Shown here one piece after another: positions 1 to 52,202 of a DNA stretch of 64,000 nucleotides. A program made the position numbers and the translations under genes. The notes beneath the pieces were generated by a model, which saw nothing but the letters and a program-made list of their open reading frames with translations, made no database searches and was not told the origin of the DNA. The stretch is from Escherichia coli (GTDB lineage Bacteria > Pseudomonadota > Gammaproteobacteria > Enterobacterales > Enterobacteriaceae), in NCBI RefSeq assembly GCF_013315695.1, contig NZ_CP054353.1. The stretch is one strand, 5' to 3'. Position 1 is the stretch's first letter. Every line of letters starts with the position of its first letter.

Positions 1-103
1 CGGCATTAATGCGCAAATAAGTCGCTATACTTCGGATTTTTGCCATGCTATTTCTTTACATCTCTAAAACAAAACATAACGAAACGCACTGCCGGACAGA
101 CAA

Positions 104-37808: not shown

Positions 37809-38561
37809 TTATCTCGTCACCTTCCTCAATTGCGCTTCCGCGTATGCTTCTTCCTGCCAGCACTTTGTTACCAGTTTACCAATGACGTCCGCATACCCCT
37901 TATACCACTGATAATCGGTCAGGTCTGGTACCAGCTTCTGGACATGACGTCGTGCCAGCGTGGTCGGTAAACGACTAAACCGGTTTCCATTACAACGCCC
38001 ACAAATCTTATATACCGGTACGCCATGAAACCGGGTTCTTTTTTCATCCAGAACAATCCCTTTACCCTTACACCCTCTGCACGCTGTGCTGGCTTCGCCC
38101 TTACCATGGCAATGCTGACATAGTTCCTTCACCCATTCTTCCTTGATTACAGATTCCCCGCGTCTGTAGTGTTTCACCACTTCGCGCAATACATTATAAA
38201 ATCCCGTACCTGAACAATGCTCACAGCGAGCCTTACTTGCCGCAGACCTGGAGTAATCAGCAAAGGCAAAACTCACGAGGTAAGGAATAATCTGTAACCG
38301 GATTTCTTCACTCAATTTGTTCAATGTCGGGTTATTCAGTGCCATCGCGTAATTTAGCAGGCCTTCAATCGCAAACTGAGGGTCCTGAACACCAACTTTT
38401 GCCAGAAATAAGGCCAACCCAAGTGGTGCTTTCGACTGCACCATCCCCTGCGCTGCCATTACATCCGTAATTGTTAAACAACCGGTGCCTGTCGCTGGAG
38501 CGTCATCGCTCAATTTTGGAGATTTTGGGGAGTAATATTTTGGTAAGGCTTCAAGGTTCAT
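37809..38561 (-). CDS. quuQ: late-gene antiterminator Q-like protein
   Basis: 250 aa from MNLEALPKYYSPKS...; several CxxC zinc-finger pairs; position upstream of lysis genes. Confidence 0.75.
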   Translation of the reverse strand: MNLEALPKYYSPKSPKLSDDAPATGTGCLTITDVMAAQGMVQSKAPLGLALFLAKVGVQDPQFAIEGLLNYAMALNNPTLNKLSEEIRLQIIPYLVSFAFADYSRSAASKARCEHCSGTGFYNVLREVVKHYRRGESVIKEEWVKELCQHCHGKGEASTACRGCKGKGIVLDEKRTRFHGVPVYKICGRCNGNRFSRLPTTLARRHVQKLVPDLTDYQWYKGYADVIGKLVTKCWQEEAYAEAQLRKVTR

Positions 38562-38574
38562 GCTCGTTCTCCAC

Positions 38575-39663
38575 TTACGCCAGTACGCCAATTGCCAGCG
38601 CGCGATCGATAAAACGAAATATCAGCTCCAGTTGGGAGCCATACTTATCTTCAAATGCCACTGTATCCGTATGCAGCTCGTTGTGATGCTTTCTGCACAA
38701 AGGCAACACAAAGAGATCATGTGCTTTTGTTCCCATTCCGCCCTGCCCGTGACCAATCAGATGATGCGGATCGTCGGCTGGCATACCGCAGCAAGCACAC
38801 GGCTGTGTCTTAACCCAACGTGTGTATTTCTCCTTAACCCAGCGGCGACGTTTAGGCAGCTTCATGAAAGATTCCGGAGACTCTGGATCAACGGTGATGC
38901 TTACCACCGTCTTTTCCTGTGGTGATTTTTGTTGCTGGTGGGCGTAAGGCAACGGTGCAAGATTTTTTGTGCGTTGTTTCAATATGCTGGTGGCGGTCTG
39001 CTCTCCCGGTACGATGTCGCTTTCGCGGTACACCGAGCAGATTTTTTCCGCTGGTAATCCCAGCGAACGACGCGATACAGCCTCAGGTAGTGCATCCACC
39101 ACCTGATTGCAGACCGCCCACCAGGATAATTCAGCCAAAGATAATTCCCGCTCCTGCGTACCGCTTATTGCGTGACGGATGACGTCAATCACCCATGCTG
39201 TCAGATTTTGTTGAGCAAGCAGCTCCAGTGATTCCGATGTCTGGTCACGCAGTTGGTTGTCGCAGTGCCAGCACAACACCATTGCGCCGGTACCATAACG
39301 GTGAATGACTGTTTCAGTGTGATGGTAATCGCCATTAGGCCACTGGCAGGATGTAACATGACGTAATAGCCAGTCGGACAATGCGCCAACGCCGCCAGCA
39401 GCACGAATCACCCGTTCGTTACTAAAAAACGGCAGCAATGTTTTGTCTTCCGCCAGCGGCTGGCGAACGGCAGGAACGACTCCGGATGGCAGATTACGCA
39501 TGCTTTTTGGTTCCGGTTCCACCAGCACTCGAGGATTATGAAATATCTGTATGGATTCACGGCCCGGCTTAAGGACCACCAGCCCAAGCTCAGGCACCAG
39601 AACAGGTCTAAGTAATACCCGCACGTTACCTCCAGATCCGTTGCTGGAAAGTGCGGGACGCAC
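38575..39663 (-). CDS. ydfU: hypothetical prophage protein with cysteine/histidine-rich C-terminus (YdfU-like); start uncertain
   Basis: 362-aa ORF-track frame; ...CACCGMPADDPHHLIGHGQGGMGTKAHD...CRKHHNELH motifs. Confidence 0.55.
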   Translation of the reverse strand: MRPALSSNGSGGNVRVLLRPVLVPELGLVVLKPGRESIQIFHNPRVLVEPEPKSMRNLPSGVVPAVRQPLAEDKTLLPFFSNERVIRAAGGVGALSDWLLRHVTSCQWPNGDYHHTETVIHRYGTGAMVLCWHCDNQLRDQTSESLELLAQQNLTAWVIDVIRHAISGTQERELSLAELSWWAVCNQVVDALPEAVSRRSLGLPAEKICSVYRESDIVPGEQTATSILKQRTKNLAPLPYAHQQQKSPQEKTVVSITVDPESPESFMKLPKRRRWVKEKYTRWVKTQPCACCGMPADDPHHLIGHGQGGMGTKAHDLFVLPLCRKHHNELHTDTVAFEDKYGSQLELIFRFIDRALAIGVLA

Positions 39664-39970
39664 GTGGTGGGCGTTCGGAATAAGGCAGCCTGACAGAGAT
39701 TATCCAGTGCCGATAGTCGAGACTGAGAGCTTTCTTAACCTCGAACCCGCGCCTGCGGTAAGAATGAATCAGCCATTCGGCCTGTTCTGCAGTGCATGGA
39801 GGGTGCCGGAACCATTCAGACTTGAATGCGTGAGAATACCGCCCGTGCGTGCAGGCAAGAACGGGCGAATTATCAGAATTGTAATATTTTGCGTTGCGTG
39901 CCATCGGTTTTCTCCGGTGGCACGGTGTTACTCAGCGGGAGTTCAGCCCCGCGCAAGATTGTAGATGAGT

Positions 39971-40222
39971 TTATTCTTCTGAAAAAGCAGAAAAGCCAGC
40001 TTTTATTCCGATCTCTTTCAATACCTGTAATGAAGTGACAAACTCACCGTCGCGCAAGATAAATCCGTCCGTCACTCGGGCATCCACAAAATTAATTAAC
40101 GCAGCCCCATTTTTTTGCAAACACACAATGCGGTAATGACTAACAATATTTCCATTTTCAACGCACACAGCATAGAGGCCATCTTCACAAAAAATTTTAC
40201 GCAGTTCTTCGATGTTCATCAT
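39971..40222 (-). CDS. rem: hypothetical prophage protein Rem
   Basis: 83-aa ORF directly upstream of hokD-relE-relB as in Qin. Confidence 0.6.
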   Translation of the reverse strand: MMNIEELRKIFCEDGLYAVCVENGNIVSHYRIVCLQKNGAALINFVDARVTDGFILRDGEFVTSLQVLKEIGIKAGFSAFSEE

Positions 40223-40438
40223 CAGAATCCTTCCGGATAATTAGCTCTCCCCTTTAAGGGACCATCCCTCTTATCCCTGCGCGCTACTTAAGTATTTTTG
40301 ATTCTATTCCGGCACCGTCCAGAACTTCAAATGCGTTGAAAATAAAAACAAAAACCCGCCGAAGCGGGTTAAGTGCGGGTGCGTTGAGAATGCCTGCCAC
40401 ATCAGAGGTGGCGAGGGATTTCTCCCTCGCCGGGTCTC

Positions 40439-40594
40439 TTACTCCTCAGGTTCGTAAGCTGTGAAGACAGCGACCTCCGTCTGGCCGGTTCGGATTCGTA
40501 CCTCGCAGAGGTCTTTCCTCGTTACCAGTGCCGTCACTATGACGGTTAAACAGATGACGATCAGGGCGATTAACATCGCCTTTTGCTGCTTCAT
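40439..40594 (-). CDS. hokD: Hok-family membrane toxin HokD (RelF), 51 aa
   Basis: minus strand reads MKQQKAMLIALIVICLTVIVTALVTRKDLCEVRIRTGQTEVAVFTAYEPEE; below ORF-track cutoff. Confidence 0.85.
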   Translation of the reverse strand: MKQQKAMLIALIVICLTVIVTALVTRKDLCEVRIRTGQTEVAVFTAYEPEE

Positions 40595-40665
40595 AGCCTG
40601 CTTCTCCTGTCAACGCAAAGCAGAAGTGTCACCTTCGGTGCGAAACAGAGATGTCATGCTTTGGT

Positions 40666-40953
40666 TCAGAGAATGCGTTTGACCGCCTCGCTATATACTT
40701 CCGAGCGTTCTCTTTTCCCAACAGAAATCACGAAAACGACAACTTTCTCGTCTATAACCTGGTATACAAGGCGATAGCCTGAAGACCGGAGCTTAATCTT
40801 GTAACAATCAGGCATACCACGGAGCTTGTTTGCTTCAATCCGGGGTGACTCAAGTACTTCAACCAGCTTCTTTTTCAACTGTTCACGTACCGTCGAGCCC
40901 AGCTTTCGCCATTCCTTTAGTGCCCGCTCGTCAAAATCCAGAAAATACGCCAT
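40666..40953 (-). CDS. relE: RelE mRNA-interferase toxin
   Basis: 95 aa; MAYFLDFDERALKEWRKLGSTVREQLKKKLVEV... Confidence 0.9.
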   Translation of the reverse strand: MAYFLDFDERALKEWRKLGSTVREQLKKKLVEVLESPRIEANKLRGMPDCYKIKLRSSGYRLVYQVIDEKVVVFVISVGKRERSEVYSEAVKRIL

Positions 40954-41192
40954 CAGAGTTCATCCAGCGTCACACGTACTGGCTTAGGATTACGAAGCCG
41001 TTCTTTCACTATCTCCACAAGTTCAGCATCTTCATCACTCAGGAGTGTCTGTTTGAACGGCAAGCGTTCATTGTCAGCGATATACTCGAGCATGAGACGA
41101 AGCGCTTCAGAAGGAGTTACACCCATTTTTTCAAGCGCGGCGTAAGAACGCGCTTTAAGTTCATCGTCAATACGCAGGTTAATGCTACCCAT
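40953..41192 (-). CDS. relB: RelB antitoxin
   Basis: 79 aa; MGSINLRIDDELKARSYA...; overlaps relE start. Confidence 0.9.
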   Translation of the reverse strand: MGSINLRIDDELKARSYAALEKMGVTPSEALRLMLEYIADNERLPFKQTLLSDEDAELVEIVKERLRNPKPVRVTLDEL

Positions 41193-41216
41193 GTCTTACA
41201 CCTCTTGTAATTACAA

Positions 41217-41522
41217 ATGTCATTACAAGTATCGCACTACAACATGCTTAGGGCAAGTCACGAAGGAAGTCAGAAAGTAGTCGTAAGAACGGTGATCACT
41301 GTCCGCTTTGTGCCAGGAGCAGCCATTGCTAAGTCCATCCTGTATTGTGCAGGTCAGCTCGTTTTTAAAGAGTCCGGCCATCATCTTACTGGTACAGACA
41401 CCATATACTTTGTGACGGTCAGGCTACATATGCACAACTCAACTTATTCATCTATTTTTTGCTTTAGCATGTCAGTGTTGCTTTCTCGTCGGCGGGTGAG
41501 CGGTGACCTGACCTGTCGATAA
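41217..41522 (+). CDS. ydfV: hypothetical prophage protein (YdfV-like)
   Basis: 101-aa ORF divergent from relB; name by synteny only. Confidence 0.45.
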   Translation: MSLQVSHYNMLRASHEGSQKVVVRTVITVRFVPGAAIAKSILYCAGQLVFKESGHHLTGTDTIYFVTVRLHMHNSTYSSIFCFSMSVLLSRRRVSGDLTCR

Positions 41523-41724
41523 AGGAACGTAACACGTTTTATGCAACACCCGCATGCGGCAGAAAATTATTGCCGAACGTTTACCCCTGTCAACAAGCTT
41601 TACTTTCTGAGGCGCGCCAGCCCGCGAGGAAAACAATCTGAACATCAAACAATTAATGACACAAGAAATACGATTAAAGATTTTTTTGTGCATGCCGATA
41701 GTGCTTTTTTAAAAGGAGAAATCT

Positions 41725-42057
41725 ATGTCTGTCACAATTCAGGGAAATACCTCAACCGTTATTTCAAACAACTCCGCCCCGGAAGGAACATCAGAAATAG
41801 CCAAAATCACAAGACAAATTCAGGTGCTGACTGAAAAGCTTGGGAAAATCTCATCGGAAGAGGGGATGACGACACAGCAGAAAAAAGAAATGGCTGCATT
41901 GGTACAGAAGCAAATTGAAAGCCTCTGGGCTCAACTGGAGCAGTTGTTAAGGCAGCAGGCAGAGAAAAAGAATGAAGACGCGACAGTTCAGCCTGATAAA
42001 AAAGAAGAGAAAAAAGACGATACAAATACCGCTGGCACCATTGATATTTACGTCTAA
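41725..42057 (+). CDS. flxA: FlxA
   Basis: 110 aa; MSVTIQGNTSTVISNNSAPEGTSEIAKITRQIQVLTEKL... Confidence 0.85.
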   Translation: MSVTIQGNTSTVISNNSAPEGTSEIAKITRQIQVLTEKLGKISSEEGMTTQQKKEMAALVQKQIESLWAQLEQLLRQQAEKKNEDATVQPDKKEEKKDDTNTAGTIDIYV

Positions 42058-42071
42058 GTGACAGCCGTATT

Positions 42072-42095
42072 GTGGCCCTCATCGGGCCACTTTTC
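42072..42095 (+). terminator. rho-independent terminator after flxA
   Basis: gtggccc tcatc gggccac followed by TTTT. Confidence 0.55.
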
Positions 42096-42493
42096 GCCAT
42101 CAGCCTTTTCTTTAAAGACATATTATCTTTGTATCATTTCTGATAGTTAACATTACAAGATATAAGTAATGGACGCACTCCCAATTAGTCTATTTAAATC
42201 GCCACGAGTTTAACTGACAACCCATGATCAATTATGAATTGCAACTATTTCTGTAGTCACTTTTGTGGGGACAGTCCACAAAACTGCCAACTTCCGCTTC
42301 TTGCTCTTAGCGGACATTAGCATAGGCTATTTACCATAACGCCTCATTACGCGCACCGCCCAGACTGACTCAGCGCGTTTCTGGCATATCCCCGGTAAAA
42401 CAAGTAACAAACCACCCGAAAATGAACACCAGAAACGCGACTTAAGAATCTACCCTATGAATGGATATGCACTCAACCGAATCGATCTTGGTT

Positions 42494-43807
42494 TCAATCT
42501 TTTTTATCGGGATCAGGCTTCTTTTTAGGTAACTTCGGGGGCTTAACTTGCTGATGACTTTGCGTTCGGCGCGTAAGCCAGGGATGGTCAGCTTTAGGTT
42601 TAACATAGTATTTTGAGCGTAAATCAATACGGGCATTATCCACTCGTTCATGGACACTCTTTTCATCATCCAGTGGTATAGGCTCCGGGCCATCAACATA
42701 CTTTTCCCAGCCCAGCGCTTTCCCGTCATACAGAACGTTAATTTCACCGTCAAAGTTCTCGCATACAGTAACAACCGAATGCCTAAGTCGATATCCCCGG
42801 CCCTCACTGCGTACCTGAAACGCACTGCTTTTGTACTGGAAAGTGAGATTTTTAGACAGAACGCGCTTCGCCTGTAGGCTGAAGATATAACCCAGTTCCT
42901 CTTCAGAATGGTGCACATCAAGATGAGCATTATCAGTAGTACGAGGCGACGTAGCGAACCGGTTGTTATAGGCTTCAATAAAGGTCGGCAACCATGCATT
43001 TGCTGTTTCAATATCACTGATATTCTGAAGCCGCATTTCTTTGACCAGCCTGTCCTGTAGTGTCTGATTGGCGCGCTCTACCCGCCCTTTTGCCTGCGGG
43101 CTGTTGGCATGGATTGGCTCGATGCCCAGTGTCTTTATCGCACGAGTGAACTGGGTCAGCTCACCTTCCCGCTCTGGGTTATTTACCCTGAATATACTGT
43201 GTCTATCAGAGTAGAGAGCGAGCGGTACGCCATGATCATTAAGGTAACCCCGGAGGGTTTCCATGTAAGCCCGGGTTGTTTCAGCAGGCACAAAACGCAA
43301 CGCCATCAACGCACTGGTGGCATCATCAATGAAAACGATCAGTGTACATCTGGGGCCTCGATTTTCAAACCAGTCATGAGGTGAGCCATCAATCTGGATC
43401 AGTTCACCGTAAGATGGTCGTCGCATGCGGCGTTGATATATACGGGCAATTTTACGACGGCGTTCACGCCATAACCCCTCTTCTATCATCCACTTTCTGA
43501 GAGTTTCAACGGATAAAGATAAACCGTGTATCTCGCGCAATTTTTCGCACGCAAACGTAGGTCCAAAATCAGCGTAACGGCCTTTGAGGAGTGAAATTAC
43601 TGTTGCTCTGAATTCAGTAGAAAAGGAATTATTAGGACGCTTTCCACGTCGGTGGGAAACCAGAGCAGAAGGCCCTTCATTTCTATACCGTTGCACCAGA
43701 CGTTTAACCTGCCGAATAGAAATGCCAATGCGTGCCGCAGCTTGTTCCTGAATAATCTGAAGTCGGTGGAGTTCCTTATGACTCATCGTAACAGTCTCTT
43801 TGATCAT
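42494..43807 (-). CDS. DDE integrase-core (rve-like) transposase/integrase-like protein
   Basis: 437 aa; N-terminal HTH-like region then catalytic core (...LIQIDGSPHDWF...VFIDDATS...LYSDRHSIF...QAKGRVERANQTLQDRL...); no terminal inverted repeats found by eye. Confidence 0.6.
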   Translation of the reverse strand: MIKETVTMSHKELHRLQIIQEQAAARIGISIRQVKRLVQRYRNEGPSALVSHRRGKRPNNSFSTEFRATVISLLKGRYADFGPTFACEKLREIHGLSLSVETLRKWMIEEGLWRERRRKIARIYQRRMRRPSYGELIQIDGSPHDWFENRGPRCTLIVFIDDATSALMALRFVPAETTRAYMETLRGYLNDHGVPLALYSDRHSIFRVNNPEREGELTQFTRAIKTLGIEPIHANSPQAKGRVERANQTLQDRLVKEMRLQNISDIETANAWLPTFIEAYNNRFATSPRTTDNAHLDVHHSEEELGYIFSLQAKRVLSKNLTFQYKSSAFQVRSEGRGYRLRHSVVTVCENFDGEINVLYDGKALGWEKYVDGPEPIPLDDEKSVHERVDNARIDLRSKYYVKPKADHPWLTRRTQSHQQVKPPKLPKKKPDPDKKD

Positions 43808-44141
43808 GAAAAATCCCCCAGAGAATTGTCTGGGGACATTTTAGAATGGTTCAAAGGGGACATTACAGCTTGGTGTTAACAATAGCCTGCTTCTCCGTGC
43901 CTTTCGGCACGTAAGAGGCTAACCTACATGTGTCTAGCATGAAATTGGCCTCAGATTAATGTTAAGCGTCTTGCAGGACGCGTAATGTTAACTGGGGCTT
44001 TTCTCTATCTGCCGTTGGTGTCCATGCCCGAGGCAGATAGCCTCAAGCACCCGCAGTCATTCTACTTAACTAAGATTTCCCCGCAAACCGTTTTTGTCCA
44101 GCACAGTAAATATCCAACTAAACCAATGGAGTTCGCTGTAT

Positions 44142-44360
44142 TTACCGCCAGTATTCAATGCACATGACCGCCATGAACACCCCTAAAAAAAGGGCATTTA
44201 TATATCCAAATATTAATATCAAAACATCAACTTTTTCCATATACCTTGCTGTGAAGATGATGGGCATACATGATGCGAACAACCAGAACGCAACAAACAA
44301 AAACTGCAATGCGTTTTTCATTATTCCTCCTACAATCAATGTGCAATTACATTTAAACAC
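44142..44360 (-). CDS. hypothetical small membrane protein (2 TM)
   Basis: 72-aa ORF, very hydrophobic; AT-rich context; could be spurious. Confidence 0.25.
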   Translation of the reverse strand: MFKCNCTLIVGGIMKNALQFLFVAFWLFASCMPIIFTARYMEKVDVLILIFGYINALFLGVFMAVMCIEYWR

Positions 44361-44575
44361 ACCTCAATTTGGCCGGACATATAAATATCTAAACCAGAAA
44401 AAATCACTTACATAGCGTTACAAACTCTTTAGTCTAAAGGTTCATCGTAAAACATTCCCCATACTTATCAGTCCGTTCCGCGCCAGGTAGCTCATTGCCT
44501 TATCTGGCAACCTGTAATCAGGTTTCCGCTTTTTCAGTTGGCTGGTCGTTTAACCGACATAGTTAATCCATTAAT

Positions 44576-44863
44576 CTAGTTGCCGGATGTTGGTGGATTT
44601 TCGCGTTTTAGTTGTTCATAAAAGTGCACAGCTTTAACCAGTTCTTCTGATGTAACTGGGACTGGTGAGGCAGTGAATAAGGCCTGAATTTGATAGTTCG
44701 GCCTGTCGTTACAATCCTCTTTTTTCGGTACATATTTCCAGTCACCAGACCACTACTTCCCCTGAAAGTCCGTAACGCCTTTTTTTACGTAGCGATATCG
44801 CCATGCCACTGGTTTTGCTTGCCCCGCCGTTTCATGCCCTTCCTGATAATTAATCTCGCTCAT
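44576..44863 (-). pseudogene. small early-region gene interrupted by an in-frame TAG
   Basis: MSEINYQEGHETAGQAKPVAWRYRYVKKGVTDFQGK - TAG at 44753..44755 - WSGDWKYVPKKEDCNDRPNYQIQALFTASPVPVTSEELVKAVHFYEQLKRENPPTSGN. Confidence 0.45.
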
Positions 44864-45473
44864 TCATCGCCCCACTCATCACAATATGCTTCGACCGGAG
44901 TTTTTCCCGCTTCATAGTCATCACGCTAGGATTCGACATCAGCAGCACTTCCACCGCGTAACTCACCATAGTCCATTAATAGTTCATCCCGCTCTTCAAA
45001 ACTGATGTTATATTTAGCTGAACAAAAATCAGCCACTTTGTTCTTCCTCATCGTCTTTTATTTCGTGGTATGAGTAATTGCAGTAGTTAAAGAAAATTTC
45101 TTATGCTCCGTCATGAATTTCCTCAGGTGTTGCGTCATCGTCCACTTCGAATACATCCTCAAAATCTCCACCAGCTATTCCCGTTTCAATAATAATTTTG
45201 AACTTTCGCATTTCACTACCGCCCTTTCGGGCGGCCTCCTGATGTTCTGAGGGTGCAGAAATCCATCCGGTTAAGGATTAAATTTTATTTACAGAACTGA
45301 ATTTAATTATTCAGATATACGTATCTGTAGCCTTACGAATCTACTCACTGGATGCCTCTTTCATAAAAATAATCCAGTGGGTTTTATCGTTTTTTCCCTG
45401 TTCGTTGACAGATAACAGGTTTTCTGTCTGTCAGTGCCAGAATCTGGCTTACCGGTATTTGCGTTTCATTCCA

Positions 45474-45830
45474 TTAAAAAATCAGAACGCCGTGCGGCCT
45501 CAACACCCGAAAGGCTTCTTTAAATCTCTGTCGCGAATCATCACGCCAGGCATCTTTATTCAGCCGTCCATATTTCTTTCCCATCCAGGCGTTATCACCA
45601 ACACTCTCAAGATGCGGAGGGTCTAATACAACCATCGAAAAAGATGCGTCTGCAAATGATAATGCACGAAAATCTGCGATAATGTCAGGGCTGATAATCA
45701 AGCGTCTCCCATTGCGTAATGTGTATCCTTCTTTTCTGATATCGCTGAATATCGCCCGTTCGTCAGACTTATCGAACCAGAACATGCGGCTGCCACAGCA
45801 CATATCAAGAATGGTTGCCGGTGCACTCAC
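45474..45830 (-). CDS. putative DNA methyltransferase, unusually short (possibly truncated)
   Basis: 118 aa; SAM-binding-like LDMCCGSRMF and catalytic-like VVLDPPH motifs; start overlaps upstream gene stop. Confidence 0.45.
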   Translation of the reverse strand: MSAPATILDMCCGSRMFWFDKSDERAIFSDIRKEGYTLRNGRRLIISPDIIADFRALSFADASFSMVVLDPPHLESVGDNAWMGKKYGRLNKDAWRDDSRQRFKEAFRVLRPHGVLIF

Positions 45831-46249
45831 TGCGCCACGTCCTGAAAATTACCCTGATAGAAAGCCAGTATGCGCTGCATAACTTCGCTCTTCCGGCACT
45901 CGCGACAGATTATGTTTAGGCGACTGTCGTAGCGACGTATTTCTCCGTCAGGTGATGACCAGATAAGGTCCGGATCAACCACAGCAGGTTTCTTCACCTT
46001 TGCCCTCGAGAGTTTTTTGCGGGCGTTTTGCCAGTCCTTACGCGCCTGTTCAGAGGGGAATAACCCGTAGCCGGAGTTGTATACATCGCCACTGGCTACC
46101 AGCTCTCTGGCAAGAACGCTCATCAGATATCTAGTCGCACCTGTTTTAGCTTCCAGTTGCCGTAACGTCTCACGGCCGCTCTGGCGCACGAGTTCCACCA
46201 CCTGCCATTTAATTTTTTCCCGCTCTTCTTGTGTAAAAACTTTTGCCAC
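45827..46249 (-). CDS. hypothetical phage replication-region protein
   Basis: 140-aa ORF translationally coupled between the O-like gene and the methyltransferase. Confidence 0.4.
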   Translation of the reverse strand: MAKVFTQEEREKIKWQVVELVRQSGRETLRQLEAKTGATRYLMSVLARELVASGDVYNSGYGLFPSEQARKDWQNARKKLSRAKVKKPAVVDPDLIWSSPDGEIRRYDSRLNIICRECRKSEVMQRILAFYQGNFQDVAQ

Positions 46250-46289
46250 AAGTCCCCCTTAAAATTACCTCATGACCTGAAATCAACAC

Positions 46290-47309
46290 TTATCCTCTGA
46301 AACCAGGCGGAATTTCTGTATCCGGTTCAGAAATATGATTAACACAACGCTGTACAGGTGAACGTCCCAGGCGGATGACCAGTTCGTCCCATTTTTCGCG
46401 GAGCTTTGACGGGCTCATGATGTTTTTTACCCAGAATGGATCTCGCTGAACCCGACCAAACATTTCGCAAATTTGTCTGTGGCTTCTGCCATCCAGCATC
46501 CGCATTGTGCGCACGTCATTGGCCCAGGCAGTCCAGTTAGGCTCTTTTGGTCGCATGATCTCGCCATCATCACTGGCTGCCTGTTCGTAGAGACCCACGA
46601 TCCGCCCCCAGATCCACTGCGCACACGCCAAATCCTCCCTGCTACCCCACTGGCGTTTTTTCGCACTAAACACAACCGCGTCGGAGTTCCGGGTTAAAAA
46701 ATCCTGTTCAGTCGTCTGCGGGTCCGGTTGCGAAGCTTCCGGACGAAAAGTGTTTTTATTCTCTGTAGTAATCTCTGTTGTATTCTCTGTAAGATCATCA
46801 GGCCATTTTGACCCGATGACATTGGGTCGTTTTGAACCAATGGAGCGTTTCATTTTGACCTCTTCCATCGTGTCATTTTGACCTGATGGAGCGGCGCATT
46901 TTGAACCGATGGATTCGCTCAATTTGCCACCATCTAAAAGCTCGCTCCCATAGTTGATCGTGTAGAAATTGGTCATATCGCGCTTTGATTTATTGAGCTT
47001 TTCACAACGCAAAAGCCCCAGCGTTTTCAGACTTGCAAACGCGCGCTTTAACGTTGACTCTGACCAGAATGGGAACTGTTCCAGCCATTGTTCCGTTGTG
47101 TTATAAATCCAGCGAACACCATCACATTCCATGCCGGAGTTGGTATCTCTCAACCAGTAGTGCAGTTGTTGCAAAACAATGGCTTCGTTTAAGCCAATTT
47201 TCATTGCCAGCTGCGTGTTTATAACCAGTGGGCGTTCAGCAAAAAGAAGGCTCATAATTCCATCCAGCTTTTTGTTGGTATTGCTGTCGATACGCAAGTT
47301 TGAAAGCAA
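46290..47309 (-). CDS. replication initiation (O-like/replisome organizer) protein
   Basis: 339 aa; position immediately downstream of the cro-like/cII-position genes; acidic low-complexity linker; start uncertain (overlaps upstream ORF). Confidence 0.5.
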   Translation of the reverse strand: MLSNLRIDSNTNKKLDGIMSLLFAERPLVINTQLAMKIGLNEAIVLQQLHYWLRDTNSGMECDGVRWIYNTTEQWLEQFPFWSESTLKRAFASLKTLGLLRCEKLNKSKRDMTNFYTINYGSELLDGGKLSESIGSKCAAPSGQNDTMEEVKMKRSIGSKRPNVIGSKWPDDLTENTTEITTENKNTFRPEASQPDPQTTEQDFLTRNSDAVVFSAKKRQWGSREDLACAQWIWGRIVGLYEQAASDDGEIMRPKEPNWTAWANDVRTMRMLDGRSHRQICEMFGRVQRDPFWVKNIMSPSKLREKWDELVIRLGRSPVQRCVNHISEPDTEIPPGFRG

Positions 47310-47757
47310 TTGCTTTTTCTATAAGTTCGTCAGTTTCACGATCCACTACGGCAGGATCAGCAAAAAGCAGTCCGGACTCCACCACATCGCCATATTCTTT
47401 GTTTAACCCGGCGATCATGCACGTGATGCTTTTTCCGTCAGTAATTTCACGATACAACCTGAAATCATTAATCCGGATAGCCTCCATAATTGCAGGCACT
47501 AGCGCCGTGAACTTTTCACGCTTATCCCTAGTGTCGATAGCCTTCCAGCGTTCAAATATCTTCACTCGATTAACGCCAAGCGCTCGCTGATCAATCGCGC
47601 CACCTTCATATGTGACACGCTGAACATCGATGTTCGGGCGCTCTTTCAAAGCCCAGAATGCTTCAGTGATTAATATCGTCGCCTGCTCCTGTGTCATTCC
47701 TGGTCGACATATCCAGGCATCCAGAGCCTCACGAGCCTGTTCAGGAGTGATTTTCAT
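47236..47757 (-). CDS. hypothetical protein at the cII position
   Basis: 173-aa ORF directly downstream of dicC. Confidence 0.4.
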   Translation of the reverse strand: MKITPEQAREALDAWICRPGMTQEQATILITEAFWALKERPNIDVQRVTYEGGAIDQRALGVNRVKIFERWKAIDTRDKREKFTALVPAIMEAIRINDFRLYREITDGKSITCMIAGLNKEYGDVVESGLLFADPAVVDRETDELIEKAIAFKLAYRQQYQQKAGWNYEPSFC

Positions 47758-47971
47758 TGTTCAACCGCCCCGCCCGCTTCGTCTTACGATATTCATCATA
47801 AACTTTGGGATCATACTGAAGCTCCCCGCCAGATGCCTCCTGTAGACGCATCGCGCGACCTTCGGGAACTAAATCCCCTTTCCAGCTATAAAGCGAAGCC
47901 AAACGAATACCTGCTGCTTGTGCAAGTTTTGTTTTTGAACCGAAATACAAAAGAGCGTCAGTTTTAAGCAT
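47741..47971 (-). CDS. dicC: Cro-like repressor DicC
   Basis: 76 aa; MLKTDALLYFGSKTKLAQAAGIRLASLYSWKGD...; divergent from dicA. Confidence 0.85.
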   Translation of the reverse strand: MLKTDALLYFGSKTKLAQAAGIRLASLYSWKGDLVPEGRAMRLQEASGGELQYDPKVYDEYRKTKRAGRLNNENHS

Positions 47972-47987
47972 TTAAAACACCTTTATT

Positions 47988-48051
47988 GTTAGTCATAACT
48001 AACAAGATAGATGTTAACAAAAACATAGTCAATACGATTTAGCATTAGCTA
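47988..48051. promoter_or_regulatory. dicA/dicC divergent promoter-operator region with palindromic operator-like sites
   Basis: GTTAGTCATAACTAAC and TAGCATTAGCTA palindromes in the 83-bp intergenic region. Confidence 0.5.
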
Positions 48052-48054
48052 ACT

Positions 48055-48462
48055 ATGGAAACAAAAAATTTAACTATCGGCGAACGCATCAGGTATCGTC
48101 GGAAAAACCTCAAACACACCCAAAGGTCTCTTGCTAAAGCCCTGAAAATCTCCCATGTGTCTGTATCACAATGGGAACGGGGTGATAGTGAACCTACAGG
48201 GAAGAACCTTTTTGCCCTCAGCAAAGTATTGCAATGCTCACCAACATGGATTCTATTTGGCGATGAAGACAAGCAACCAACACCACCTGTTGAGAAGCCA
48301 GTTGCCTTATCCCCCAAAGAACTAGAGCTCCTTGAGCTGTTTAATGCACTGCCAGAATCAGAACAGGATACCCAGCTCGCCGAAATGCGAGCTCGAGTAA
48401 AAAACTTCAATAAACTCTTTGAAGAATTACTAAAAGCCCGTCAGCGGACAAATAAAAGATAA
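48055..48462 (+). CDS. dicA: repressor DicA (cI-like, HTH_XRE)
   Basis: 135 aa; METKNLTIGERIRYRRKNLKHTQRSLAKALKISHVSVSQWERGD... Confidence 0.9.
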   Translation: METKNLTIGERIRYRRKNLKHTQRSLAKALKISHVSVSQWERGDSEPTGKNLFALSKVLQCSPTWILFGDEDKQPTPPVEKPVALSPKELELLELFNALPESEQDTQLAEMRARVKNFNKLFEELLKARQRTNKR

Positions 48463-48497
48463 CATCATCAATGAGTTATCTTTTACCACATCAATTA

Positions 48498-48550
48498 TGT
48501 TAGCTATAGCATACAAAATCACTTGACCGATATGTTAGTCATGGCTAATC
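48498..48550. promoter_or_regulatory. second pair of operator-like palindromes upstream of ydfA/dicB operon
   Basis: TTAGCTATAGCATA and TTAGTCATGGCTAA, same half-sites as the dicA/dicC intergenic sites. Confidence 0.45.
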
Positions 48551-48628
48551 TTGTTTGCATCAACACACCGCACGGTGTTCTCAGCAAACAGTTCCGCTAC
48601 CCCAGCGTTAAGGGGAAATGAGGTCAGC

Positions 48629-48784
48629 ATGGATACTATCGATCTTGGCAACAACGAATCTCTGGTGTACGGCGTGTTTCCAAACCAGGACGGCACGTTC
48701 ACCGCAATGACGTATACCAAAAGCAAAACGTTTAAAACCGAAAATGGTGCCCGTCGCTGGCTGGAAAGAAACTCAGGTGAGTGA
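48629..48784 (+). CDS. ydfA: small protein YdfA (51 aa)
   Basis: MDTIDLGNNESLVYGVFPNQDGTFTAMTYTKSKTFKTENGARRWLERNSGE. Confidence 0.75.
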   Translation: MDTIDLGNNESLVYGVFPNQDGTFTAMTYTKSKTFKTENGARRWLERNSGE

Positions 48785-48785
48785 T

Positions 48786-48914
48786 ATGGATTTCGACACA
48801 ATCATGGAAAAGGCTTACGAAGAATACTTCGAAGGCCTTGCCGAAGGCGAAGAAGCTCTCAGCTTCAGTGAGTTTAAACAGGCGCTTTCCAGTTCGGCAA
48901 AATCTAACGGCTGA
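48786..48914 (+). CDS. ydfB: small protein YdfB (42 aa)
   Basis: MDFDTIMEKAYEEYFEGLAEGEEALSFSEFKQALSSSAKSNG; below ORF-track cutoff. Confidence 0.65.
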   Translation: MDFDTIMEKAYEEYFEGLAEGEEALSFSEFKQALSSSAKSNG

Positions 48915-48943
48915 TAAGCGAAACAGCACCGCGAGGAATCAGT

Positions 48944-49162
48944 ATGCAGAAACGAGAACCCGTCATCATCGCGCCAGACTATACCGATGATGAACTTTAT
49001 GAGTGGATGCGCCAGAAAATTAATGCAGCGCAGGATCTGAAATGGGCTAATGAAGCCAGGGCTAAGCAGGCTGAAAATCTGTTCTCTCTGGAGCAGGATA
49101 TCACCAGGCTGGAAAAAGCAGCGGCATTAAGCATTGCCAGAATGATTACATACCCGCGTTAA
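48944..49162 (+). CDS. ydfC: small protein YdfC (72 aa)
   Basis: MQKREPVIIAPDYTDDELYEWMRQKINAAQDLKWANEARAKQ... Confidence 0.75.
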   Translation: MQKREPVIIAPDYTDDELYEWMRQKINAAQDLKWANEARAKQAENLFSLEQDITRLEKAAALSIARMITYPR

Positions 49163-49502
49163 TAGCTAACCAACGAAGCTAAGGTTGGTAATTAAGGAGT
49201 TCTCCACGGGTGAGGTGGAGTGCGTGCGCCGGACACGGGTGAGCATCCGGCACTGACAGTTTACTGAAAGGATATTTCCATGAAAAGTCAGACCATAACG
49301 CGAAAGCGCACGGCGAGGTAGCTGGTTCATAGATAGCCTGTCGTTAAATTTTCGTCGACCGTGCGCTTCCGGTTGTGGCAACCCGCGAAATGGCGCGGCG
49401 GTAAGTATGGCGGGGTTATTCCTTCCCCGTTGAGGACACCGGGTTGTCAGGTTGACCATACGCTTAAGTGACAACCCCGCTGCAACGCCCTCTGTTATCA
49501 AT

Positions 49503-49560
49503 TTTCTGGTGACGTTTGGCGGTATCAGTTTTACTCCGTGACTGCTCTGCCGCCCTTTTT
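49503..49560 (+). ncRNA. dicF: DicF small RNA (cell-division inhibitor, ftsZ antisense)
   Basis: TTTCTGGTGACGTTTGGCGGTATCAGTTTTACTCCGTGACTGCTCTGCCGCCCTTTTT: hairpin plus U-run, matches DicF as remembered. Confidence 0.8.
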
Positions 49561-49729
49561 AAAGTGAATTTTGTGATGTGGTGAATGCGGCTGAGCGCAC
49601 GCGGAACAGTTAAAACCAAAAACAGTGTTATGGGTGGATTCTCTGTATCCGGCGTTAATTGTTAACTGGTTAACGTCACCTGGAGGCACCAGGCACTGCA
49701 TCACAAAATTCATTGTTGAGGACGCGATA

Positions 49730-49918
49730 ATGAAAACGTTATTACCAAACGTTAATACGTCTGAAGGTTGTTTTGAAATTGGTGTCACTATCAGTAACCC
49801 AGTATTTACTGAAGATGCCATTAACAAGAGAAAACAAGAACGGGAGCTATTAAATAAAATATGCATTGTTTCAATGCTGGCTCGTTTACGTCTGATGCCA
49901 AAAGGATGTGCACAATGA
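49730..49918 (+). CDS. dicB: cell-division inhibitor DicB (62 aa)
   Basis: MKTLLPNVNTSEGCFEIGVTISNPVFTEDAINKRKQERELLNKICIVSMLARLRLMPKGCAQ. Confidence 0.85.
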   Translation: MKTLLPNVNTSEGCFEIGVTISNPVFTEDAINKRKQERELLNKICIVSMLARLRLMPKGCAQ

Positions 49919-50106
49919 ATTCAGCATTTGTGCTTGTTCTGACAGTTTTTCTTGTTTCCGGAGAGCCAGTTGATATTGCAGTCAGTGTTCACAGGACAAT
50001 GCAGGAGTGTATGACTGCAGCAACCGAACAGAAAATTCCCGGTAACTGTTACCCGGTCGATAAAGTTATTCACCAGGATAATATCGAAATCCCGGCAGGT
50101 CTTTAA
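49915..50106 (+). CDS. ydfD: small membrane protein YdfD (63 aa)
   Basis: MNSAFVLVLTVFLVSGEPVDIAVSVHRTMQECMTAATEQKIPGNCYP... Confidence 0.75.
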   Translation: MNSAFVLVLTVFLVSGEPVDIAVSVHRTMQECMTAATEQKIPGNCYPVDKVIHQDNIEIPAGL

Positions 50107-50198
50107 AACAGTTCCGTAATAAATATCCGGTTTCATTCTTATATGCCAACAATGGCAGGGATTTGTTCATCCTTAAATCTGTCATGAGGTTAAAACAA

Positions 50199-51299
50199 AT
50201 GAGTAAAGTCTTTATTTGCGCCGCTATTCCTGACGAACTGGCAACAAGGGAAGAAGGCGCTGTGGCTGTAGCCACAGCCATTGAAGCTGGCGACGAACGC
50301 CGTGCTCGAGCAAAATTTCACTGGCAATTCCTGGAACATTATCCGGCTGCTCAGGACTGCGCTTATAAATTTATTGTCTGCGAGGATAAACCTGGCATAC
50401 CCCGCCCTGCCCTCGATTCATGGGATGCTGAATATATGCAGGAAAACCGCTGGGATGAGGAGTCTGCTTCTTTTGTCCCGGTTGAGACTGAATCCGATCC
50501 GATGAACGTCACTTTTGACAAGCTGGCCCCTGAAGTACAGAACGCTGTCATGGTTAAGTTCGACACATGTGAAAACATCACCGTTGATATGGTTATTAGC
50601 GCACAGGAATTGTTGCAGGAAGACATGGCAACATTCGACGGACATATCGTTGAAGCGTTGATGAAAATGCCAGAAGTTAACGCCATGTATCCGGAGCTTA
50701 AGCTGCATGCCATCGGGTGGGTTAAGCATAAATGTAAGCCTGGTGCCAAATGGCCCGAAATTCAGGCAGAGATGCGCATCTGGAAAAAACGTCGCGAAGG
50801 TGAACGTAAGGAAACCGGAAAATACACGTCTGTTATTGATCTCGCCCGCGCCAGAACCAATCAACAGCACAGTGAAAATTCAACAGGAAAAATCAGCCCG
50901 GTCATTGCTGCCATTCATCGCGAATACAAGCAGACATGGAAAACACTGGATGACGAACTGGCCTACGCTCTCTGGCCTGGTGATGTGGATGCCGGAAACA
51001 TTGACGGCAGCATCCATCGCTGGGCAAAAAATGAAGTTATCGACAACGACCGCGAAGACTGGAAGCGTATCTCGGCATCAATGCGCAAACAGCCTGATGC
51101 CCTTCGCTACGACCGCCAAACTATTTTTGGCCTTGTCCGTGAGCGTCCGATCGACATTCACAAAGATCCCGTAGCACTGAACAAATATATCTGCGAATAC
51201 CTGACGACAAAGGGCGTGTTTGAGAATGAAGAAACAGACCTGGGCACTGTTGATGTTCTCCAGTCATCAGAAACACAAACTGATGCAGTGGAAACTGAG
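50199..51299 (+). pseudogene. ydfE: YdfE-like protein, reading frame runs into IS2
   Basis: frame from MSKVFICAAIPDELATREEG... continues to ...TDAVETE, then the last 8 codons (YFQTSVIT) are IS2 sequence. Confidence 0.6.
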
Positions 51300-52202
51300 T
51301 ATTTCCAGACATCTGTTATCACTTAACCCATTACAAGCCCGCTGCCGCAGATATTCCCGTGGCGAGCGATAACCCAGCGCACTATGCGGATGCCATTCGT
51401 TATAATGCTCGAACGCCTCTGCAAGGTTCTTTGCTGCCGTTAACCCGTCTGGTTTGGGCATGATACTGATGTAGTCACGCTTTATCGTTTTCACGAAGCT
51501 CTCTGCTATTCCGTTACTCTCCGGACTCCGCACCGCCGTGTTCTTCGGTTCAAGTCCCAACATCCGGGCGAACTGGCGTGTTTCATTAGCCCGGTAGCAT
51601 GAACCATTATCCGTCAGCCACTCCACTGGAGACGACGGAAGATCGTTGCCGAAGCGGCGTTCCACCGCTCCCAGCATGACGTCCTGTACTGTTTCACTGT
51701 TGAAGCCGCCGGTAGTGACCGCCCAGTGCAGTGCCTCACGATCACTGCAGTCCAGCGCGAACGTGACACGCAGTCTCTCTCCGTTATCACAGCAGAACTC
51801 GAACCCGTCAGAGCACCATCGCTGATTGCTTTCTTTCACGGCCACTCTGCCTGTATGTGCCCGTTTCGATGGCGGTACAGCAGGTTTTCGCTCAAGCAAC
51901 AGCGCATTCTGGCGCATGATCCGGTAAACACGTTTGGCATTGATCGCAGGCATACCATCAAGTTCTGCCTGTCTGCGAAGCAGCGCCCATACCCGACGAT
52001 AACCATACGTGGGCAGCTCTCCGATAACATGGTGTATACGGAGAAGCACATCCGTATCATCAGTGTGACGACTGCGGCGGCCATCCATCCAGTCATCGGT
52101 TCGTCTGAGAATGACGTGCAACTGCGCACGCGACACCCGGAGACAACGGCTGACTAAGCTTACTCCCCATCCCCGGGCAATAAGGGCGCGTGCGCTATCC
52201 AC
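51267..52202 (-). CDS. insD: IS2 transposase InsD, C-terminus extended into flanking DNA
   Basis: ...[31 protein letters not shown] followed by 10 extra codons because the natural TAG lies in the missing terminal 14 bp. Confidence 0.8.

Follow-up and report, generated by a model that had tools for sequence, protein, structure and literature searches.

The 118-aa open reading frame (ORF) described here, from a 64,000-nucleotide stretch of Escherichia coli DNA (the window), is very probably a dead gene, the 5′ 73% of a 162-codon phage-type methyltransferase gene that has undergone ordinary prophage decay. Inactivation would have come about through two point lesions, a K119* nonsense mutation and a 1-nt insertion in a G3A6 tract, and our alignments indicate that the ancestral gene occupied 45341..45830 with its 162 codons and that nothing has been deleted from it. 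An earlier note on this DNA had proposed a truncated phage methyltransferase whose remainder had been lost in the degraded region 44900..45470; the truncation stands, but the remainder is still in place at 45341..45473 (Table 1).

Table 1. Features of the methyltransferase locus and its neighbours (nucleotide positions in the window), and strands of the AlphaFold2 model of the repaired protein (residue numbers).
Feature	Location	Strand	Support
Predicted methyltransferase pseudogene, 5′ part (118-aa ORF)	45474..45830	minus	Sequence, translation
Premature stop TAA, codon 119	45474..45476	minus	DNA alignment (TTT TAA TGG vs TTT AAA TGG)
G3A6 homopolymer tract with 1-nt insertion (frameshift)	45390..45398	minus	DNA alignment, columns 430–450
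Predicted pseudogene, 3′ remainder (last 44 codons)	45341..45473	minus	Translations; match to P0013 C-terminus
DUF977/LygF ('Ren-like exclusion') gene, 140 aa, intact, upstream	45827..46249	minus	PF06163, E = 5e-29; PHROG 142
Replication-initiation O-like gene	46290..47309	minus	PHROG 391, E = 1.3e-91; annotated DNA replication protein O
DUF7167 pseudogene, internal stop, next downstream	45029..45211	minus	PF23768, E = 3e-13; PGAP: internal stop
Hypothetical-protein pseudogene, several stops	44443..44863	minus	Translation; PGAP: frameshifted; internal stop
Transposase ORF, 437 aa, HTH and rve-like domains	42494..43807	minus	ISNCY family, partial, in matching RefSeq genome
Model strand β1, carries motif I	residues 7–11		
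Model strand β2, ends in invariant D30	residues 26–30		
Model strands, the second probably β3	residues 34–37 and 43–46		
Model strand β4, DPPH at its end	residues 64–70		
Model strand β5	residues 110–121		
Model strand β6	residues 140–144		
Model strand β7	residues 150–156		

The lesions were mapped against two intact E. coli alleles, those of strain 2015C-3107 and the O111:H8 strain 99.1145, and the DNA alignment revealed exactly two in the window copy, both of which are common to four Qin-type alleles. The ORF ends with ...HGVLIF and is then closed by TAA, where the intact relatives have AAA (Lys), the altered base being 45476. In the tract, the ACA GGA AAA AAC GAT of the intact relatives has become ACA GGG AAA AAA CGA TAA in the window, and the resulting frameshift yields a second stop at 45384..45386. 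Translation continued beyond the first stop in the same frame gives F-*-WNETQIPVSQILALTDRKPVICQRTGKKR*, and the 3′ remainder reads WNETQIPVSQILALTDRKPVICQRTGK in the original frame and, one base further on, NDKTHWIIFMKEASSE*, with the final TAG at 45343..45341. In protein alignments, every full-length relative continues after ...HGVLIF with KWNETQIP-SQILALTD-KP-I-QRTGK-DKTHWIIF-K. With both lesions repaired, the last 43 residues match P0013, an intact E. coli homologue, at 36 of 42 C-terminal positions (86%, E = 6e-25). The earlier note had advised looking for the missing C-terminal part in other frames, and we found it within 45341..45473, first in the original frame and then, past the shift, one base out of frame. 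No deletion was detected in the window copy by DNA alignment, the C-terminal coding sequence being whole and collinear. We also considered whether this tail might be expressed as a separate C-terminal fragment, and this can be ruled out as the minus strand of the same interval lacks both an in-frame start codon and any ORF of 30 aa or longer. Reverting the stop and removing one base from the tract gives a protein of 162 aa, ending at the TAG given above, which is 85% identical to P0013 and is referred to here as the repaired protein.

The start codon of the 118-aa ORF is a GTG (45830..45828, minus strand) which overlaps as GTGA with the stop codon (TGA, 45829..45827) of the DUF977/LygF gene, 140 aa long, that precedes it. 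The earlier note had described the two genes as translationally coupled, and the overlap, which is also present in the aligned E. coli relatives, is compatible with this; the 118-aa product may still be translated through such coupling. A promoter and terminator scan of 44900..46400 gave no informative signal.

Comparison of the 118-aa ORF with database proteins returned 1,630 proteins at E ≤ 0.001 (best E = 4.7e-74), a similarity that chance cannot explain. Nearly all of the top matches longer than 150 aa are 155–170 aa in length and continue with KWNETQIP...KTHWIIF past the window stop, and those named by their source are labelled 'class I SAM-dependent methyltransferase' (the top matches come from E. 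coli, Salmonella, Klebsiella, Cronobacter, Serratia and Yersinia). The family is considerably wider than this, with 1,856 representatives of 50%-identity clusters found in an exhaustive HMMER scan with the repaired protein at E ≤ 0.001, 971 of them at ≤ 1e-10, and tblastn placed it in 254 phage records, at least 80% of the 162-aa query being covered in 244. The phage hosts include Streptococcus, Vibrio, Acinetobacter, Porphyromonas, Listeria, Gordonia, Enterococcus and Staphylococcus, and a haloarchaeal virus was also found.

A profile search of methyltransferase families, which had been suggested as a check, matched the repaired protein to PHROG 954 ('DNA methyltransferase', 7e-80) and to two PADLOC profiles, PDLC03288 ('MTase_II', Type II methyltransferase, 169 positions; 1.8e-66, positions 3–163) and PDLC03730 ('oMTase', orphan methyltransferase, 153 positions; 3.4e-45). 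The 118-aa ORF covers only positions 3–122 of 169 in the first of these (about 72%, 4.5e-45) and only positions 5–116 of 153 in the second, and homologues in the family alignment are 151–215 aa long, so the description of the gene as abnormally short was correct. It should be noted that the further statement that far too little sequence follows the catalytic motif was overstated, because complete members are only about 150–180 aa; the ORF is short, but it lacks just 44 residues and not the greater part of an enzyme. A complete family of the same length as the ORF had been named as a finding that would speak against truncation, and a natural 118-aa family can be ruled out since the other members are at least 150 aa. 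Among the 120 best matches there are six entries of 118 aa, all of them E. coli alleles with 87% identity or more to the window ORF.

Matches to more general resources were weaker. The generic class I model PF08241 (Methyltransf_11) gave borderline scores, 21.6 bits with the ORF and 20.2 bits with the repaired protein (cut-off 21.2), and a second generic class I model, PF13649 (Methyltransf_25), gave 18.1 bits against a cut-off of 27. There was no meaningful match to the repaired protein in NCBIfam, and a sequence search of solved structures returned marginal matches only (the best was 1ve3, E = 0.011). We note that many distant members of the family have an N-terminal extension of about 50–80 residues, the domain lying at roughly 60–225 of 225 aa, and that a few have Cys-rich C-terminal tails (e.g. 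P0126 and P0143); in such lineages these additions may supply the parts for target recognition or partner binding that are otherwise missing.

Conservation was counted over 42 diverse family members, the window allele included. Motif I (LDMCCGS) occupies residues 8–14 of the 118-aa ORF, D30 is present, and DPPH is found at residues 70–73; at least 90% of the members share L8, D9, C12 and G13, and all of them share D30 and D70-P71-P72-H73. The SAM-binding-like and DPPH motifs which the earlier note had picked out are thus real, and this degree of conservation identifies LDMCCGS and DPPH as evidently genuine functional motifs and not random strings. Conserved residues are also found from the window stop onwards, where every member except the window allele as it stands has K119 and P138, and W120, T150, W152 and K157 each occur in at least 90%; none of these six residues is present in the 118-aa product. 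The window allele also has residues seen in none of the other 41 members, S58, R102 and C141, at columns where P (85%), G (88%) and G (83%) respectively prevail, which would be consistent with relaxed constraint on this allele, and has L69 where F is found in 88% of aligned members.

A confident AlphaFold2 model of the repaired protein (mean pLDDT 92.8, pTM 0.87) has the seven-stranded sheet of the class I Rossmann-like SAM methyltransferase fold, in which the C-terminal ends of β1 and β2 form the SAM site and β4 is followed by the catalytic loop. Codon 119 lies within β5 of this model, and the stop there removes the core strands β6 and β7. As the product ends inside β5 the seven-stranded sheet cannot be completed, and from the model we would expect the 118-aa product to be unstable or, almost certainly, inactive. 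Taken with the database matches, this places the window gene as an apparent pseudogene member of the small phage class I SAM methyltransferase family, that of PHROG 954 and PDLC03288, and not as a functional one, because the frame through β5–β7 is interrupted.

The gene belongs to the replication/early module of Qin, a cryptic prophage of E. coli. This agrees with its earlier placement in a replication module, as the O-like PHROG 391 gene and the DUF977 gene are found upstream. The region 38000..52000 of the window is Qin (dicA, dicB, dicC, ydfA–D, relBE, hokD, rem, ydfU, ydfT and flxA), and we used the annotation of strain MSB1_4I, in which the region is 99.7% identical over 38000..52000, to describe the setting (the same stretch is found at 99.9% identity in the record of Escherichia phage PhiR42_1, with ECOR13 as listed host). 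The order in MSB1_4I begins with dicB, ydfD, ydfC, ydfB, ydfA, dicA and dicC, followed by a YdaT-family gene, the O-like replication gene, DUF977 and WP_001310834.1 (118 aa), then by the DUF7167 pseudogene, a second pseudogene and an ISNCY transposase, and ends with ydfW, flxA, ydfV, relBE, hokD, rem, ydfU and ydfT. The block of YdaT-like, O-like, DUF977 and methyltransferase genes is kept in the Qin prophage, and the annotation has no helicase-loader gene of the DnaC or P type separating the O-like gene from DUF977. The longest ORF of the O-like gene has a TTG (47309) as its provisional start and encodes 339 aa; RefSeq and phage records have a version of 966 nt and 321 aa, the start of which overlaps the end of the YdaT-family gene. 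The intact DUF977 gene is followed by three consecutive decayed genes, the methyltransferase, DUF7167 and hypothetical-protein genes. An ORF overlapping the transposase ORF (42442..43017, minus strand) has a C-terminus, ...MLNLKLTIPGLRAERKV...HRVDS, which is found fused after methyltransferase residue 106 in one protein (P0009), and the same ISNCY-type element may have inserted into the methyltransferase gene of another strain.

The lesions are not assembly errors, because the allele recurs in 378 of 5,426 complete E. coli genomes (about 7%, counting matches of at least 99% over 45341..45500), with a further 99 genomes at 95–99%. Sibling Qin alleles have the same two lesions and are 98–99% identical over these 160 bases, with few point differences. 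PGAP annotates siblings (e.g. IMP96_RS12110 and ACE1SG_RS11235) as 'SAM-dependent methyltransferase; frameshifted; internal stop', and the alleles so labelled include those of strains Res13-Lact-PEB14-36 and TBU0218_10-1CC, which are near-identical and carry both lesions. In contrast to these flagged siblings, in many genomes PGAP treats the exact window allele as an ordinary CDS (WP_001310834.1, 118 aa), and this is a point against the pseudogene reading.

Other E. coli copies are broken in different ways. In the O157:H7 strain Rafaela_II (L003 2503..2976) the methyltransferase is interrupted by W95* (TGG->TAG), P0014 loses the reading frame at the codon where the window has its tract (...QRTGKTIKPTGLFL), suggesting a second, different indel at the G/A tract, P0019 has a frameshift earlier than this tract, and in P0006, P0009 and P0020 unrelated sequence is fused after residues 92–106. 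Such varied knock-outs fit loss of function and not a specific new form. Repeated, independent loss could mean that a promiscuous methyltransferase is selected against in the lysogen, and not that the gene decays neutrally, although we regard this as unlikely. A separate observation comes from P0012 (an ENA metagenome, two member sequences), which has GAA (Glu) at codon 119 and has kept the frameshift (...LIFEWNETQ...TGKKR*); this hints that the frameshift preceded the nonsense mutation, or else that the stop mutated again later.

The alternative with most in its favour is that the truncated 118-aa protein is a functional derivative kept by selection, whether as a half-domain that binds SAM or has a regulatory role, or as a dominant-negative partner. 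This would account for the retention of the coupled start and of all the N-terminal motifs, for an allele that is identical in hundreds of genomes, and for its annotation as a normal CDS, and yet we consider it very improbable. The product ends inside β5, and the lost β6 and β7 are part of the core sheet and no appendage, the invariant K119 and P138 are missing, never-seen residues stand at conserved columns, the adjoining genes are also decaying, and E. coli alleles have been broken variously (W95*, frameshifts and fusions). An unchanged allele in some 7% of complete genomes could be read as retention, but inheritance with a fixed cryptic prophage explains this wide occurrence equally well.

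We give almost no credence to full-length expression by programmed recoding, in which readthrough would be combined with a frameshift, or to a phase-variation switch at the G3A6 tract. The frameshift does sit in a homopolymeric tract at which P0014 suggests another indel, but recoding would require two separate events, the TAA is followed by T (the most efficient termination context in E. coli), and intact relatives do without any such mechanism. Six A's are a short run for phase variation, and with the TAA upstream of the tract the gene would stay broken even if the tract were repaired. Finally, deletion or scrambling of the C-terminal part in 44900..45470 might be expected in a degraded region with two further pseudogenes, but is refuted by the C-terminal sequence at 45341..45473, which is whole and collinear and has 86% identity with intact homologues. 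We therefore retain the reading of the gene as a decayed prophage methyltransferase.

The activity that the window copy would have lost is best approached through the intact family, the most likely reaction of which, by analogy, is methylation of an exocyclic amino group of a nucleic-acid base, with SAM as the methyl donor and (D/N)PP(Y/F/W/H) chemistry. In amino-methyltransferases the (D/N)PP(aromatic) loop serves to bind the flipped-out base together with its exocyclic NH2. The repaired protein has motif I, D30, an ADF motif and DPPH at the end of β4, in this order, which we infer to be the order of the amino-methyltransferases. A Foldseek search with the model gave Trm11 (m2G10 in tRNA, E = 4e-5) as the top match, and other matches include an archaeal rRNA m4,2C synthase, M.BceJIV and M.TaqI (both DNA m6A), TrmM and N6AMT1, identity being only 15–18% throughout. 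The family shares the class I Rossmann-like fold with Trm11, TrmN and RsmC (m2G, RNA) and with M.TaqI and M.BceJIV (m6A, DNA), and also has motif I before motif IV (gamma-type) and the DPPx loop at the end of β4. It differs from Trm11/M.TaqI-type enzymes in having only 15–18% sequence identity with them, in being without a separate target-recognition domain where they carry THUMP or a C-terminal TRD, and in having His and not an aromatic residue at the fourth position of motif IV.

The beta-class N6/N4 DNA methylases of PF01555 (N6_N4_Mtase) also have DPPx and give a weak local match to the window gene (E = 0.016). In this class motif IV precedes motif I, which is the opposite of the window protein, and membership can be ruled out as the match scores 15.6 bits, under the gathering cut-off of 26.7 bits, and motif I precedes DPPH. 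Intact members of the small phage family (e.g. WP_001275735.1 and WP_000145671.1) have the same motif I, D30 and DPPH and, in E. coli prophages, the same position after DUF977 as the window copy, which differs from them in K119*, the frameshift and an ORF covering about 72% of the profile.

Databases predict the family to be a phage orphan DNA methyltransferase which shields phage DNA from host restriction, self-protection of this kind being the usual role of phage orphan methyltransferases. A literature search for the small DPPH phage methyltransferase family found no paper on any member, and among the matches listed for Qin prophage and methyltransferase, judged by title and abstract, there was none on the window gene. 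As no characterised member was found, the DNA-methyltransferase role rests on the database labels and on analogy of motifs and fold.

Much of this is already known, in that the family has been catalogued in databases and sibling alleles have been flagged as pseudogenes. What our analysis provides is a correction of the annotation, in which WP_001310834.1 becomes the 5′ fragment of a pseudogene at 45341..45830, and methylome or restriction-modification inventories should leave it out of their tally of active methyltransferases. The biological weight of this one copy is small, as it represents routine decay in the Qin prophage of hundreds of E. coli genomes. The object of interest is instead the intact phage family and not the dead copy in the window, for the parent family of about 155-aa proteins without a target-recognition domain appears to be both widespread and uncharacterised.
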